Below, piece after piece: positions 4,475 through 15,589 of a DNA stretch of 42,492 bases. Both the position numbers and the translations under genes were made by a program. Under the pieces are notes generated by a model. The model was not told where the DNA came from. It saw only the letters and a program-made list of their open reading frames with translations, and ran no database searches. Position 1 is the first letter of the stretch. Each line of letters begins with the position of its first letter. This stretch comes from a virus (lineage: Duplodnaviria; Heunggongvirae; Uroviricota; Caudoviricetes): the IMG/VR virus record IMGVR_UViG_2645727821_000010, positions 1-42,492 of that record; one strand, given 5' to 3'.

Positions 4475-5388
4475 CCAGAATCACTGAAGAGCGTATATCA
4501 GAGATTATTTCCCGTATCGAAATGTATGGTCACGGTGCTGGATATACGGCAGATGAAGTATTGGCACTTGCCCAAATGGCTTTGGCGGCTTGCAAAGATG
4601 ATAAAAAAATGAAGCTTATCGACTTGTTAGTGAAGGAGCTGCCTAAGTGCGGCGGGTGGCCTGATGGAATGAGTTATTGTTACCTACCCTGTGTCAATTT
4701 AATGGCACCATGCGCGACTTTTGCTTTTGGCTCAGACCACAAAAAAGACACTTTCTTTGGGCGCAATTTTTGTTGTGAGATTGAGCTTCCAATTGGTGGC
4801 CTTGATAGCGATGAATACCAGTCAGTTGTCACTCGCGAACAATACGAATCAGCTCTCATAGCGTCGCAGAAAGTCGAGTTCAATGGTGATGAACTTGAAA
4901 GTAAGACTTACAGGTTGGATTTTGGGCAATGGCTGGAACAGCAACGCGGGAAAATCGATGTGGACTGTGGTTGTGTGTCCACTGAAACATTCATGCACTG
5001 GCTGCGGGTAGCTTACGAGGCTGGCAACTATCCGGATATTCCGGATAGTTCGGTGCCAGGGTCAGGAAAGGGCGTCACCGGTGAACGTATCCGCATTAAA
5101 CCGCATGTTTATCGCGAACTGGTTAACCGTCTCCACGATACAGCGATCAAGTGTGCGGGCACCCAGCAATTACGAGAAAGAATTAGCCGTGTTTTGGGCG
5201 ACGTTATTACGCCAGATCATCATAAACAAGCCGAGAAAAGTGGCTTGGAAAGGTGTCACCTTGAGGCGGCATTAAACATTAAGCCGGGGCATACGCTTGG
5301 CATTATTGATGCACTATTGGTTCATAAGATGGCCAGGGCTTTATTGCCGCTGGTGGATGCTGGCGATACAAGCGAGGGTGAAGTATGA
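4471..5388 (+). CDS. hypothetical protein, 305 aa; N-terminus (MTRITEERISE) is a third member of the ITKER domain family
   Basis: ORF 4456..5388; start at 4471 preferred because of the ATGA overlap with the upstream stop and the parallel with the paralogs at 971 and 2381. Confidence 0.6.
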   Translation: MTRITEERISEIISRIEMYGHGAGYTADEVLALAQMALAACKDDKKMKLIDLLVKELPKCGGWPDGMSYCYLPCVNLMAPCATFAFGSDHKKDTFFGRNFCCEIELPIGGLDSDEYQSVVTREQYESALIASQKVEFNGDELESKTYRLDFGQWLEQQRGKIDVDCGCVSTETFMHWLRVAYEAGNYPDIPDSSVPGSGKGVTGERIRIKPHVYRELVNRLHDTAIKCAGTQQLRERISRVLGDVITPDHHKQAEKSGLERCHLEAALNIKPGHTLGIIDALLVHKMARALLPLVDAGDTSEGEV

Positions 5389-5747
5389 GAGTTGCAGATC
5401 ACATCAAACACCTTGAAAGAATTATCGAAAACGGTGAACTCTTAAGAGATCAGATGAGACGCACGGCAGAAGTCAGAGAGGCGATAATCCGCAGTCAGGC
5501 TGGTAAATTAAAGCAATTGTCAGAGATTAACGCGCTATACAAGAACAGACGTAACCGGGCGGCGCTTCGGCTTCAGAAAGCACGTAATGAAATTAAATTG
5601 GTGGAGGCAAAACTGAAAAAACAGATTCAGCGTTACGATCAGCAAGATGCTTTTTATGCCGCCATCAAGGCGGCTGCTAATGAAATAGGCATCTGGAAGT
5701 TGCTGGTGGAGAAAGCAAAGACGAAGTTAAATGCCAACGAAAGCTGA
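5385..5747 (+). CDS. hypothetical coiled-coil protein, 120 aa
   Basis: ORF track; ATGA overlap with the upstream gene; last gene of the left-hand plus-strand operon. Confidence 0.55.
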   Translation: MRVADHIKHLERIIENGELLRDQMRRTAEVREAIIRSQAGKLKQLSEINALYKNRRNRAALRLQKARNEIKLVEAKLKKQIQRYDQQDAFYAAIKAAANEIGIWKLLVEKAKTKLNANES

Positions 5748-5821
5748 ACTACAGGTACCCACCAGCACATACAGAAAATGATTGTTTCCACATCAAGGAG
5801 ATTTTAATGTTTCACTGAACA

Positions 5822-5959
5822 TTAAGTAAGCCAGTGCATAATTCCATTTTTTACTGACCTTAAAAGCAAAATCAAAACGATGATGAGGATGATCGCCAGA
5901 ATCTGGCTAATAACAGGCGCATCTAAAAATGCACTCAGGAACTGAAAAAAAGCAGTCAT
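5822..5959 (-). CDS. candidate small hydrophobic peptide, 45 aa (MTAFFQFLSAFLDAPVISQILAIILIIVLILLLRSVKNGIMHWLT)
   Basis: Hand translation of the minus strand; AAGGAA 8 nt upstream of the ATG; single predicted transmembrane helix; below the ORF-track size cut-off. Confidence 0.25.
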   Translation of the reverse strand: MTAFFQFLSAFLDAPVISQILAIILIIVLILLLRSVKNGIMHWLT

Positions 5960-6821
5960 TAAGGTGGTTCCTTGTCAAATGTAAAGGAGCACTTGCTCAC
6001 GTTGACGTAGAAACCCAACCCCTATATAGTTGGATTCGGTGAAAGAAAGTCGTTAACGTGAGCTTACGGCACATGTTTTCGGAACAACATCAGGGAACGG
6101 CTAATTCCTTGATGCGGATGGGGTCTGTAATGCAGACCCTATCTATTAACGTCATGATTGCATCTCAAATTTTCTCCTTATCTTCAATTAATCTACATTC
6201 ATTTCATCTGTTAGCCACCACAATATGTAGAAAATGGCCCTCTTGCAAGTGCATAACTTTGTGGATAACTCAGGAAGGAAAAAGTGGCTTTCGCGCACCT
6301 TCGGTCAGACAAGGTGTCCGGGAAAGTCAACGCAAAGAAAAAAATTGTTAAAAATAACGTTTGTTGGAATTGTATATTTTTATCCCCTTCAATGGTTAGC
6401 ATTCTATTAACATCTTTTTTTAGAGACAGAAAAACATATCGTAACAACATATATACAGTATTAAGAGGCGAGTATTATCCTGCGGTGGGAATTCTGGTCG
6501 CTGTTAGATTCGACTTTCTCAGCAGGATTACATCGTCAACTTGCGACGTTGCCGTATGTCTTTCGTGTAATAGGTGACAATGATGCGGCTAGTGAGTTAC
6601 TTGTGAAGTTTTTCGGAAAAGGTTTTGTGGCCTCGGATCTTGATGAGCTACAGCAACATGAAGTGTCTAATTTGATTTTTAGCCATAGCCAATAAGCCTC
6701 CCTCCTCCATCAAGGCCACAATTTGTGACCTTAAACAATTTGTTTTCTGCTTTTTCTTATTTGAGAAAATAACGTTGTTGACAGCTAATAGGCTCGTTGT
6801 TGTTATACATGCCTGTATAGA

Positions 6822-7178
6822 TTATGACCGTAAATTATTAGTGGATTTTAAGCCATATTCACCGTTGTAGAAATTACTCATGTTCCATTCATTAGGAAGT
6901 TCTTTTCTGTCCAATGTATAGTGGCGCACGATATAACGATCTTCATCTTCTTCGATGGACAGGCGGACATAGCCAATGTGGATCACCGATACGGGCGGTG
7001 TTCGTATTGCATAGATGTCGCGGAGATATACCGGTAGCTCGACAAATGCATCAGGTGCATCTGTGATGCTCGTTTTTTCACAGTATTCATATAACGCATC
7101 GTTGATATCGTTAAGAGATTCATGATCGTATATTTCCAGGTAATTACCGCGATCGCGATGGTACTCGATTTTAGCCAT
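6822..7178 (-). CDS. hypothetical protein, 118 aa
   Basis: ORF track; AGGGGA upstream of the ATG; start overlaps the stop of the upstream gene. Confidence 0.55.
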   Translation of the reverse strand: MAKIEYHRDRGNYLEIYDHESLNDINDALYEYCEKTSITDAPDAFVELPVYLRDIYAIRTPPVSVIHIGYVRLSIEEDEDRYIVRHYTLDRKELPNEWNMSNFYNGEYGLKSTNNLRS

Positions 7179-7937: not shown

Positions 7938-8327
7938 ATGGGCTTCCCTTCTCCTGCGGCGGATTATGTTGAAAGCCGAATTTCTCTTGATCAGCAACTA
8001 ATCAGGCATCCATCAGCAACCTACTTCATGCGGGCAGCTGATAGCCATCACCGTGAGGGAATATTGCAGGGTGCTTTGCTGGTGGTTGATTCCTCGCTTA
8101 CTCCGGTTGATGGTTCTCTGCTTGTGTGCGCTATGGAGGGTGAATATCGCATAAAGAGATACAGGAAGTATCCGCGCCAGCACCTGGAGGATTTAAGCAC
8201 CGGGAAGAAAGAGGCGTTACCAGTAGATGACGATGGATACACGGGCAGTAATGCTGTTTTTGGTGTGATCACTCATGTCATCAATGATGCCCGAAGTGGG
8301 GAATTTGATGATTGTCCGGTTATTTAA
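7938..8327 (+). CDS. humD: HumD, UmuD-like SOS mutagenesis protein homolog, 129 aa
   Basis: Recognised as P1 HumD from the translation and synteny with phd/doc; LexA box immediately upstream; GAGGTG ribosome-binding site. Confidence 0.85.
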   Translation: MGFPSPAADYVESRISLDQQLIRHPSATYFMRAADSHHREGILQGALLVVDSSLTPVDGSLLVCAMEGEYRIKRYRKYPRQHLEDLSTGKKEALPVDDDGYTGSNAVFGVITHVINDARSGEFDDCPVI

Positions 8328-14436: not shown

Positions 14437-14530
14437 TGATCCTCCTCCAGAATTGACATGGCCAACAACTCACAGCGGATTACACTGGGAGTTGTTGGCC
14501 ACCATTATAGAAGGATCCAACGAAAATAAT

Positions 14531-14547
14531 AGATTTATTAGTGCATT
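14531..14547 (-). promoter_or_regulatory. degenerate C1 operator-like site (AATGCACTAATAAATCT on the minus strand)
   Basis: 14 of 17 positions match ATTGCTCTAATAAATTT; lies between coi and c1. Confidence 0.35.
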
Positions 14548-14756
14548 TATTGTGAGTCTGGCTGGTTAGTGGCCATGAGATATTCGATTGTGTCAGTGAG
14601 ATCATCCAGGTCGTCTTGGGTGATGCGGTACTCCTGATTGGATATCTTTGAGTAGTGTTCAGCAATGGCGCGGGCAGCGTCGGTTTCGGCGGGGTCTACA
14701 GATAAAGCGTTAGAGCAATGTCTAACGTCGTCGATGGTTGGTGGAATGAAAGCCAT
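14547..14756 (-). CDS. coi: Coi, C1 inactivator, 69 aa
   Basis: Size and position upstream of c1, as in P1. Confidence 0.85.
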   Translation of the reverse strand: MAFIPPTIDDVRHCSNALSVDPAETDAARAIAEHYSKISNQEYRITQDDLDDLTDTIEYLMATNQPDSQ

Positions 14757-14994
14757 AATTATGCCTCACTGTATTGACAACACAGAGCCTGAAGCTCTGA
14801 CCTACTGTTTCACCCATGATCCATGCTGGGGTAATCTAACAACATTGCGCTGTGTGTAAGATGAGCAATGCATAGCTGTAATGCCGTTGTATAAGGTTTC
14901 CCTGTTTGCTCATTTCCTTCTGAGCCGCTCTACAACGCTGAAGACACATTAAATAGTGAATCCAAAGTCGTATTACGAAACGGCGGCAAAACTA

Positions 14995-15011
14995 TAATTT
15001 ATTAGAGCAAT
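14995..15011 (-). promoter_or_regulatory. C1 operator ATTGCTCTAATAAATTA (Op99-type, upstream of the coi-c1 operon)
   Basis: 16 of 17 positions match the C1 operator consensus. Confidence 0.8.
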
Positions 15012-15077
15012 TGTCAAACAACTATGAAAAACAATCCAGTTTTTGGCTGGTGGAGTGGGATTTTTCTCTCAAAATTT

Positions 15078-15094
15078 ATTGCTCTAATAATTCT
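15078..15094 (+). promoter_or_regulatory. C1 operator ATTGCTCTAATAATTCT
   Basis: Consensus core ATTGCTCTAAT; opposite orientation to the site at 14995-15011. Confidence 0.7.
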
Positions 15095-15137
15095 TGATTT
15101 TTATGCGCAGCTGGACGTAAACTCCTCTTCAGACCTA

Positions 15138-15171
15138 ATAACTTCGTATAGCATACATTATACGAAGTTAT
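15138..15171 (+). other. loxP site ATAACTTCGTATA-GCATACAT-TATACGAAGTTAT
   Basis: Exact match to canonical loxP: 13-bp inverted repeats flanking the 8-bp asymmetric spacer. Confidence 0.98.
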
Positions 15172-15243
15172 CTTAAGGGTTATTGAATATGATCAATTTA
15201 CCTGTAAATCCATACAGTTCAATACCTTATCAGGTCAAATAGT

Positions 15244-15263
15244 GATCACTTGATCATTTGATC
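15244..15263. promoter_or_regulatory. cluster of three Dam GATC sites (two within TGATCA) in the cre upstream region
   Basis: GATC at 15244, 15252 and 15260, plus one at 15191; P1 cre promoters are known to be Dam-regulated. Confidence 0.55.
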
Positions 15264-15360
15264 AAGGTTGCGCTACGTAAAATCTGCGAAATGTTGGCAG
15301 TGTTAGTGCTCCAGATTTCGCGTAGCGCACTTAGCACCACCAATCAATCAGAGGTGAAAA

Positions 15361-15582
15361 ATGGGATATTCAGCTGCTAAAGTGTCCACTCATATTGAGC
15401 TTGAGAAAAACCGTGGTTACTGGCGGGCAAAAGGGTTTGATCGTGATAGTTGTCAACTGTCATTATCGCGCGGTGAAGAGAAAATAGAACGCACGCGCGG
15501 TCGCTGGCGTTTCTATGACGAGAACCATAAACAGGTAAAGGCAGAGCCGATCCTGTACACTTTACTTAAAACCATTATCTGA
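15361..15582 (+). CDS. small hypothetical protein, 73 aa, between loxP and cre
   Basis: ORF track; GAGGTG 5 nt upstream of the ATG. Confidence 0.35.
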   Translation: MGYSAAKVSTHIELEKNRGYWRAKGFDRDSCQLSLSRGEEKIERTRGRWRFYDENHKQVKAEPILYTLLKTII

Positions 15583-15589
15583 GTGTTAA

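Follow-up and report, generated by a model that had tools for sequence, protein, structure and literature searches.

The window analysed here is the whole of a 42,492-nucleotide stretch, positions 1 to 42,492 of the IMG/VR virus record IMGVR_UViG_2645727821_000010, and belongs, as a P7-type element, to the P1 phage-plasmid family. Between the end of pmgV (5747) and the end of upf93.6 (6822) lies a gap of 1,074 bp. The original prediction, made from the letters alone, had described it as one gene-poor region of about 1.07 kb in a tightly packed genome, holding a 45-amino-acid (aa) hydrophobic minus-strand open reading frame (ORF), an inverted repeat and a hairpin, and had proposed a type I toxin-antitoxin locus or a small RNA (sRNA). 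When ORFs of at least 100 aa were tiled across the window, the gap was the second largest uncovered stretch, the next smaller one measuring 466 bp (the largest, of 1,153 bp, lies at 14437-15589), and its unusual length was thus borne out. The region is not uniform: about 410 bp on the right consist of umuD-like and toprim/primase relics, and another 130 bp copy the upstream region of the host gene nrdA. Judged from these alignments, the gap is composite, with a module in its left part (5760-6298) and decayed gene fragments in its right part (6362-6776).

Extent, spread and conservation of the module

Around the gap, the window shares 98.7% identity with phage P7 and with several P1-like phage-plasmids. 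The comparison with P1 that had been suggested gave a divided answer: the left half of this stretch is 97% identical to P1, but the similarity stops near 6298. A second clade (clade B) is 77% identical to the module of the window over 5760 to about 6299, and is carried by other P1-like plasmids as well as by unrelated plasmids of about 110 kb. The neighbours of the module vary. At least three contexts were found on its left (pmgV, the type I restriction-modification gene hsdM and other hypothetical genes) and three on its right (hot, an S24 peptidase gene and, as in the window, gene relics). From its constant limits in these changing surroundings, the module is a discrete unit, mobile between different plasmid backbones. 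It was found in 216 of 5,426 complete Escherichia coli genomes, and all but one of its 223 copies (222) were plasmid-borne. Searches of protein databases, metagenomes and viral contigs recovered only the two clades. A word search of 5.8 billion proteins and a HMMER search of 1.84 billion representatives returned only truncated or frameshifted copies from these clades, a metagenome scan with back-translated peptide motifs yielded just the same two, and an exact-pattern scan of species-representative genomes gave no match.

Conservation between the clades is uneven along the module. The DnaA boxes and the -35 element of its minus-strand promoter are 100% identical, and the -10 and start region that follows is 49% identical with a 19-nt insertion. 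Identity then reaches 90% in the leader (6192-5996) and 96% in its sub-block 6087-5996, falls to 61% in the spacer ahead of the ribosome-binding site, and amounts to 78% in the 45-aa ORF and 67% in its 3' flank, the flanks in general ranging from 49 to 67%. A non-coding leader with a higher identity than the ORF that follows it is the pattern expected if both strands of the segment are functional.

Existing annotation describes this DNA differently. Between pmgV and hot, P1 has been listed for about twenty years with three plus-strand ORFs of "unknown protein" (upfM, upfN and upfO), and the P7 annotation of the same DNA gives the plus-strand ORFs upf91.3-91.7; the minus-strand 45-aa ORF is unannotated in both phages. 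In clade B, upfM and upfN are interrupted by stops or frameshifts, a comparison which indicates that these two, at least, are not genes. The features of the gap and its surroundings are collected in Table 1.

Table 1. Coordinates of observed and predicted features in and around the gap, in window positions
Feature	Position	Strand	Remarks
pmgV	5385-5747	+	left neighbour of the gap
Portable module	5760-6298 (~540 bp)	-	small ORF, leader, antisense promoter and DnaA-box promoter; limits from similarity and varying neighbours
Hairpin overlapping the ORF stop codon	5805-5826	-	predicted fold
45-aa hydrophobic ORF, candidate toxin	5959-5822	-	reads MTAFFQFLSAFLDAPVISQILAIILIIVLILLLRSVKNGIMHWLT
Ribosome-binding site AAGGA	5969-5973	-	9 nt before ATG
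Leader stem from the 13-nt inverted repeat	arms 6063-6051 and 6007-5995	-	encloses hairpin AAUCCAAC...GUUGGGUU
Sigma-70 promoter TTGACG-17-TATAGT (P1 "PupfN")	6002-6030	+	10 of 12 consensus positions
Candidate antisense sRNA	6037-6150	+	~110 nt; 5' and 3' ends putative
Three sRNA stem-loops	6050-6082, 6088-6114, 6116-6144	+	predicted fold
Leader 21-codon upstream ORF	6155-6090	-	overlaps the mini-ORF
Leader mini-ORF	starts at AUG 6163	-	start-stop pair only in clade B
Leader AAGGAG	6179-6174	-	conserved
Leader		-	structured; ~250 nt if the start is near 6213
nrdA-like promoter	6220-6268	-	predicted start near 6213
-10 element TATTGT	6225-6220	-	
-35 element TTGCAA	6248-6243	-	
DnaA box TTATGCACT	6256-6248	-	overlaps the -35 element
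DnaA box TTATCCACA	6268-6260	-	
Copy of the E. coli chromosomal nrdA upstream region (including ypaB)	6230-6358	-	94-95% identity
umuD-like (S24 peptidase) gene relic	6362-6490	+	upstream region and first codons; 83% identity
Degenerate LexA box in the umuD-like relic	6451-6460	+	11 nt of the box lost in the window copy
Toprim/primase pseudogene	6484-6776	+	5'-truncated; nucleotide identity 89%
Hairpin downstream of the toprim relic	near 6702-6722	+	
upf93.6	7178-6822	-	right neighbour of the gap
lxr	7763-7179	-	beyond upf93.6; humD and phd next

Promoters, predicted RNAs and the small reading frame

The minus-strand promoter of the module resembles that of a host gene. Every one of the 5,426 complete E. 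coli genomes had a chromosomal counterpart of 6230-6358, with nrdA downstream in the same orientation. Two DnaA boxes lie directly upstream of the TTGCAA -35 element and overlap it, an arrangement that by its alignment is of the nrdA type and homologous to that of E. coli nrdA. As in the nrdAB promoter, both boxes and the -35 element are oriented so that they would drive a downstream transcript. The likeness ends at the -10 region, beyond which the leader of the module takes the place of the remainder of the nrdA promoter and of the nrdA leader. On this evidence, the toxin-side promoter is of host origin, copied from the nrdA upstream region. The likeness was recorded early, as the 1990s P1 entry GenBank M95666 already marks this position with a dnaA box and, on the minus strand, a "nrdA-like promoter".

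On the other strand of the same segment, a 58-aa ORF (P7 upf91.6; 6234-6410) is the counterpart of E. coli ypaB. Its length differs among clades (58, 46 and 34 aa) and only its N-terminus, which lies over the DnaA boxes and the -35 element, is conserved, so that the ORF looks like a by-product of promoter conservation. In some ~110 kb plasmids (locus L039, NZ_MK125034.1, 1900-2030, minus strand), a strong bidirectional terminator, AAAAAAGCCCAG...CTGGGCTTTTT, lies about 80 nt beyond the nrdA-like piece in place of the 45-aa ORF module, an arrangement which suggests a short transcript. Plasmids of this type were considered as possible carriers of a divergent module downstream of the nrdA-like piece. 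The idea was rejected, the segment having no significant similarity to the module and the terminator standing there instead.

Transcription from the nrdA-like promoter would produce a structured leader ahead of the 45-aa ORF. The 21-codon ORF within this leader is equal in length in both clades and has a ratio of non-synonymous to synonymous substitution rates (dN/dS) of about 1, so its peptide sequence is not under selection; it is almost exactly the stretch that lies opposite the candidate sRNA. Closer to the 45-aa ORF, the imperfect 13-bp inverted repeat of the original prediction was recovered at 5995-6007 and 6051-6063. Its arms are 92% complementary, and we estimate the chance expectation of such a pair at about 0.06 in 1 kb. 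At 6062, clade B has a change that the stem accommodates by a G-U pair in RNA of the minus strand but not of the plus strand.

Opposite the leader stands a plus-strand promoter, the only promoter-like site common to the window, P1 and clade B. Its hexamers are invariant, the changes between clades inside 6002-6030 being confined to the spacer, and the wider block 5996-6087 shows 4 differences over 92 positions. The P1 record annotates the same site as a predicted promoter. Two further P1 promoters, P1upfM and P2upfM, were set aside; they sit in a poorly conserved, indel-rich stretch. A NrdR box reading of CCCCTATATAG, in the spacer of the plus-strand promoter, was dismissed on our own inspection, as the palindrome spacing does not fit.

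The RNA that would start from this promoter has a marked predicted fold. Over the sRNA interval, the plus strand reaches -44.6 kcal/mol (z = -4.86) and the minus strand -32.3 kcal/mol (z = -2.82), an asymmetry explained by the 7 G-U pairs in the plus-strand fold. The fold prediction that had been proposed as a check therefore came out in favour of a structured plus-strand RNA. The hairpin with a 7-bp stem reported at 6121-6139 is present as the inner part of a longer one, with 11-nt arms at 6117-6127 and 6133-6143, which the fold extends to 13 pairs including G-U (6116-6144). Taken alone, the 7-bp stem is at chance level; it is more than chance because of its conservation, a compensatory change and the z-score of the fold. 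Indeed, of the 13 differences between clades in the sRNA interval, 7 fall at unpaired positions, and at the stem pair 6124/6136 both sides have changed, from T-A to C-G. Besides, the A-to-G change of P1 and P7 at 6118 preserves pairing on the plus strand only. With the opposite preference at 6062, both strands appear to be under constraint at the RNA level. The inverted repeat and the hairpin, which had been listed as separate oddities, both exist but are better understood as parts of the leader and of the putative antisense RNA. This RNA would lie opposite the predicted leader, and its overlap with the messenger RNA (mRNA) depends on the modelled start near 6213.

The 45-aa ORF with its ribosome-binding site is present at 5822-5959 as first described. 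Its predicted product, below 60 aa, has one predicted membrane helix (residues 16-33), over which the 9-residue hydropathy mean reaches 4.2 in both clades, and a basic C-terminal tail. The ORF is intact in all clades, always 45 aa long and free of indels, and tblastn aligned it over its full length in at least 227 of 229 plasmid copies. In clade B the ribosome-binding site reads GAGGA at a matching spacing, the spacer sequence having changed with the loss of one base. Between clades, the ORF shows 11 synonymous and 20 non-synonymous differences (dN/dS about 0.45), the replacements being mostly conservative (I/V/L/F, R/K) with the hydropathy profile kept. The stem over the stop codon (5805-5826) aligns between clades with a two-sided change from U-A to C-G and a further change from G-C to G-U. 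In some plasmids PGAP lists the ORF as a hypothetical protein, WP_000123562.1; in others, including an identical plasmid, it leaves the ORF out.

Damaged copies of the ORF were also seen, and its IS1 and frameshift variants are rare among the plasmid copies. IS1 has inserted independently in the C-terminal codons, behind codon 39 of a clade A copy and codon 36 of a clade B copy, and both insertions yield the identical new tail VMTPTY (locus L069, NZ_AP026785.1, 700-1590; protein P0003). Other damaged copies are frameshifted (P0001 and P0004) or disrupted by an insertion (P0002).

A type I toxin-antitoxin-like reading and its alternatives

From these features, we tentatively read 5760-6298 as an unannotated, self-contained and horizontally mobile type I toxin-antitoxin-like locus, and place this reading slightly short of an even chance. 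From the weak, presumably regulated minus-strand promoter with its two DnaA boxes, transcription would begin near 6213 and give an mRNA of about 460 nt, which would consist of a structured leader of about 250 nt, with a strong Shine-Dalgarno sequence, the mini-ORF and the 21-codon ORF, followed by the ORF for the 45-aa single-helix membrane peptide. The strong plus-strand promoter in the leader (6002-6030), presumably constitutive, would make the RNA of about 110 nt with its three hairpins, whose complementarity to the leader is perfect across the upstream ORF. Pairing of the two RNAs would block translation of the leader or trigger cleavage, keeping the peptide off. Upon loss of the element, or of the antisense RNA if this is short-lived, the peptide would be made and would damage the membrane. 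The original proposal of a type I toxin-antitoxin system or sRNA thereby finds partial support for 5760-6298, where the ORF is kept in a clade 77% identical and occurs with a conserved plus-strand promoter, a structured putative antisense RNA and a mobile module, but not for the rest of the gap, which is captured host promoter and debris.

In the proposed layout, the toxin would have a weak regulated promoter and the antisense RNA a strong one, and the long leader would contain an ORF lying under the antisense RNA; hok/mok/sok, ldrD/rdlD and tisB/istR-1 are laid out in the same way. As in hok/mok/sok of plasmid R1, a type I system of post-segregational killing, the candidate is plasmid-borne and would have the gene of a small membrane peptide preceded by a long structured leader, with a leader reading frame that has its own ribosome site and a short cis-encoded antisense RNA that is expressed from a strong promoter inside the leader and covers the leader ORF. 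However, no sequence match to Hok/Gef was found in Pfam and NCBIfam, nor to Sok in Rfam, and mok overlaps hok whereas the leader ORF here stops 130 nt before the toxin start. Moreover, no fold-back pairing of the 5' and 3' ends is supported here, and the toxin-side promoter has DnaA boxes.

With the SOS-controlled type I systems tisB/istR-1 and dinQ/agrB of E. coli, the candidate would share a toxin promoter tied to a global host regulator and an antisense RNA pairing far upstream of the toxin ribosome site, in a long leader with an untranslated or regulatory upstream ORF. Their sRNAs are divergent and partly complementary, whereas the one proposed here would be fully cis-antisense; their regulator is LexA, whereas the present boxes are those of DnaA, taken from nrdA, and no family match connects them. 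The ldrD/rdlD system (Ldr/Fst-type) likewise has a cis-antisense RNA opposite the 5' leader and not opposite the toxin ribosome site. It differs in peptide length (35 aa against 45) and in that the present module is plasmid-borne, and no Ldr or Fst profile matched at expect values (E) up to 1. We take the 45-aa peptide to resemble the Ldr/Fst type in its Ala-Pro motif ahead of the membrane helix and its basic/aromatic tail, a resemblance for which profile searches gave no match.

Several results weigh against this interpretation. The first concern the families already catalogued. Pfam and NCBIfam gave no relevant match for the peptide at E up to 1, its best PHROG match was an unnamed family (E = 0.056), and PADLOC reported nothing relevant for the ORF. 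At the gathering threshold, Rfam had no match in the whole window, and its E-value mode gave only noise over 5700-6900, the best hit being BsrG with 15 bits against a threshold of 55. In the libraries searched, no report of a transcript, of toxicity or of an RNA-RNA interaction was found for the locus. In a CRISPR interference screen of P1, upfN and upfO were dispensable for lytic growth, upfM being outside the screen.

The predicted parts themselves also raise doubts. The minus-strand promoter agrees with the consensus at 8 of 12 positions only. The putative sRNA is without a canonical U-rich terminator: after the last hairpin comes UAUCUAUU, a tail that resembles a terminator only weakly, and the terminator scan made no call, so the 3' end of the RNA is uncertain. 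Accessibility of the ribosome site, modelled for free, antisense-bound and leader-translated mRNA in five variants, gave no consistent switch. A pairing with the Shine-Dalgarno sequence by GUUCC (6084-6080), seen in one fold, was discarded, as it is not kept in clade B. Since only two deep clades are known, each compensatory change, and every covarying position, stands for a single evolutionary event. As to the ORF, its 31 substitutions are distributed over codon positions as 11/8/12, with no third-position bias, the frame stays open in 44% of trials under a random-mutation model, and a simulation of conservative replacement is marginal (p about 0.07-0.15). The minus strand is T-rich, which favours hydrophobic ORFs by chance. 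By these measures, the statistical coding signal of the ORF is weak.

An alternative reading, which we consider unlikely, takes the plus-strand promoter and the structured RNA as the core of the locus and denies them any control of the 45-aa ORF. The RNA would be a trans-acting sRNA, or the 5' leader or attenuator of the downstream plus-strand gene (hot in P1, an S24/umuD-like gene in the ~110 kb plasmids), and the ORF would encode a harmless small membrane protein or stay untranslated. The strongest signals do concern the plus-strand promoter and fold, coding evidence for the ORF is weak, a plus-strand gene lies within 0.4-0.5 kb downstream in most contexts, and an attenuator could be formed by the 6116-6144 hairpin together with the weak U tail behind it. 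However, the window and all P7-type elements have relics downstream and the block is still 97-100% conserved in them, while hot and humD have annotated promoters of their own. In addition, only a stem in minus-strand RNA tolerates the change at 6062, and the block is always accompanied by the ORF with its ribosome site and by the DnaA-box promoter.

It seems quite improbable that the module acts as DNA, its DnaA boxes and inverted repeats binding DnaA or another protein, for instance to titrate DnaA or to couple plasmid-prophage replication to the host cell cycle, with the ORF and the RNA structures as by-products. The full conservation of the DnaA boxes and -35 element, copied from a genuine DnaA-regulated host promoter, would suit such a role, as would the location of the 13-bp inverted repeat in the most invariant 90 nt. 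Instead, the strand-asymmetric fold energy and the G-U-compatible changes argue for selection on RNA and not on duplex DNA, the promoter hexamers are invariant whereas their spacer varies, and the preserved ORF and ribosome site would be left unexplained. Finally, we regard as very improbable that nothing in the gap is functional and that all of it is debris from recombination in a mosaic hotspot beside humD, its apparent conservation reflecting recent shared ancestry: the right part can be shown to be debris (relics of umuD-like and toprim genes, where P7 also has IS903), IS1 and frameshift ORF variants occur and PGAP annotates nothing in an identical plasmid, but conservation between the same two clades passes from 49% to 100% across adjacent segments, which is not what neutral decay would give, the module boundaries are identical in independent contexts and the ORF is intact in nearly all copies.

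Returning to the type I toxin-antitoxin-like reading, none of the catalogued type I toxin profiles (Hok/Gef, Ldr, Fst, TisB, Ibs, ShoB, DinQ-like and others) matched the peptide, nor did the Rfam covariance models of antitoxins and sRNAs (Sok, Rdl, IstR, Sib, OhsC and others) match the RNA. A transfer RNA scan found none. The locus is therefore assigned to no named family such as Hok, Ldr or TisB, and would at most be a new member of the general type I class; the literature searched did not describe it as a toxin-antitoxin system or an sRNA. A bolder claim, which we hold to be rather doubtful, is that P1-family phage-plasmids and an unrelated group of E. coli plasmids of about 110 kb carry an unrecognised type I family, in which the 45-aa membrane toxin and the ~110-nt cis-antisense RNA would both be new and the toxin promoter would be that of the host nrdA, captured with its DnaA boxes. 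On this claim, synthesis of the toxin mRNA would track the state of host replication initiation or of deoxynucleotide (dNTP) demand, and not the SOS response as in the chromosomal tisB and dinQ.

Few phages have been studied as much as P1, whose relatives commonly carry resistance genes in E. coli and Salmonella. From its layout, the locus is a plausible unannotated RNA-controlled toxin module in this classic phage. If both the minus-strand peptide and its antisense RNA exist, P1 would possess, at 2 kb from phd-doc, a second module for addiction or exclusion, this one based on RNA, and the case would be one of a mobile element that borrows a host cell-cycle promoter to drive a toxin. Should the peptide and the antisense RNA not exist, the region would still clearly document mosaic recombination at the side of humD.

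Gene relics and neighbouring genes

To the right of the nrdA copy, about 410 bp of the gap is, by its alignments, gene debris from recombination beside humD. The segment 6362-6490 aligns just upstream of S24 peptidase genes in the ~110 kb plasmids. In the window copy of this umuD-like relic (6440-6490), a motif like a Shine-Dalgarno sequence is kept and a 13-nt deletion removes the ATG. An intact humD lies at 7938-8327, 1.4 kb to the right of the relic.

The toprim relic that follows corresponds to a gene whose intact form, encoding 174 aa, is known from ~110 kb plasmids of E. coli (rep_cluster_488). Its coding part, 6495-6695, represents the last 66 of the 174 aa (residues 109-174; 82% identity by tblastn, E = 2e-34) and matches PHROG 17952, "DNA primase" (E = 1e-37). 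Lacking the N-terminal part of the reading frame, it is a pseudogene relic, and a 48-aa ORF at 6549-6695 is the tail of this pseudogene. In P7, IS903 is inserted inside the same relic, near 6569.

Beyond upf93.6, the N-terminal two thirds of Lxr have homologues (53-62% identity) far beyond P1-like elements, in Pantoea, Pseudocitrobacter, Serratia and alphaproteobacteria (Sphingobium, Mesorhizobium, Afipia); nhmmer and tblastn found no copy of the module in the loci around these homologues. Just outside the 3' end of upf93.6, a promoter-like TTGACA-17-TGTTAT on the plus strand (6779-6807), read by eye and not called by the scan tool, would read antisense into the upf93.6-lxr operon.

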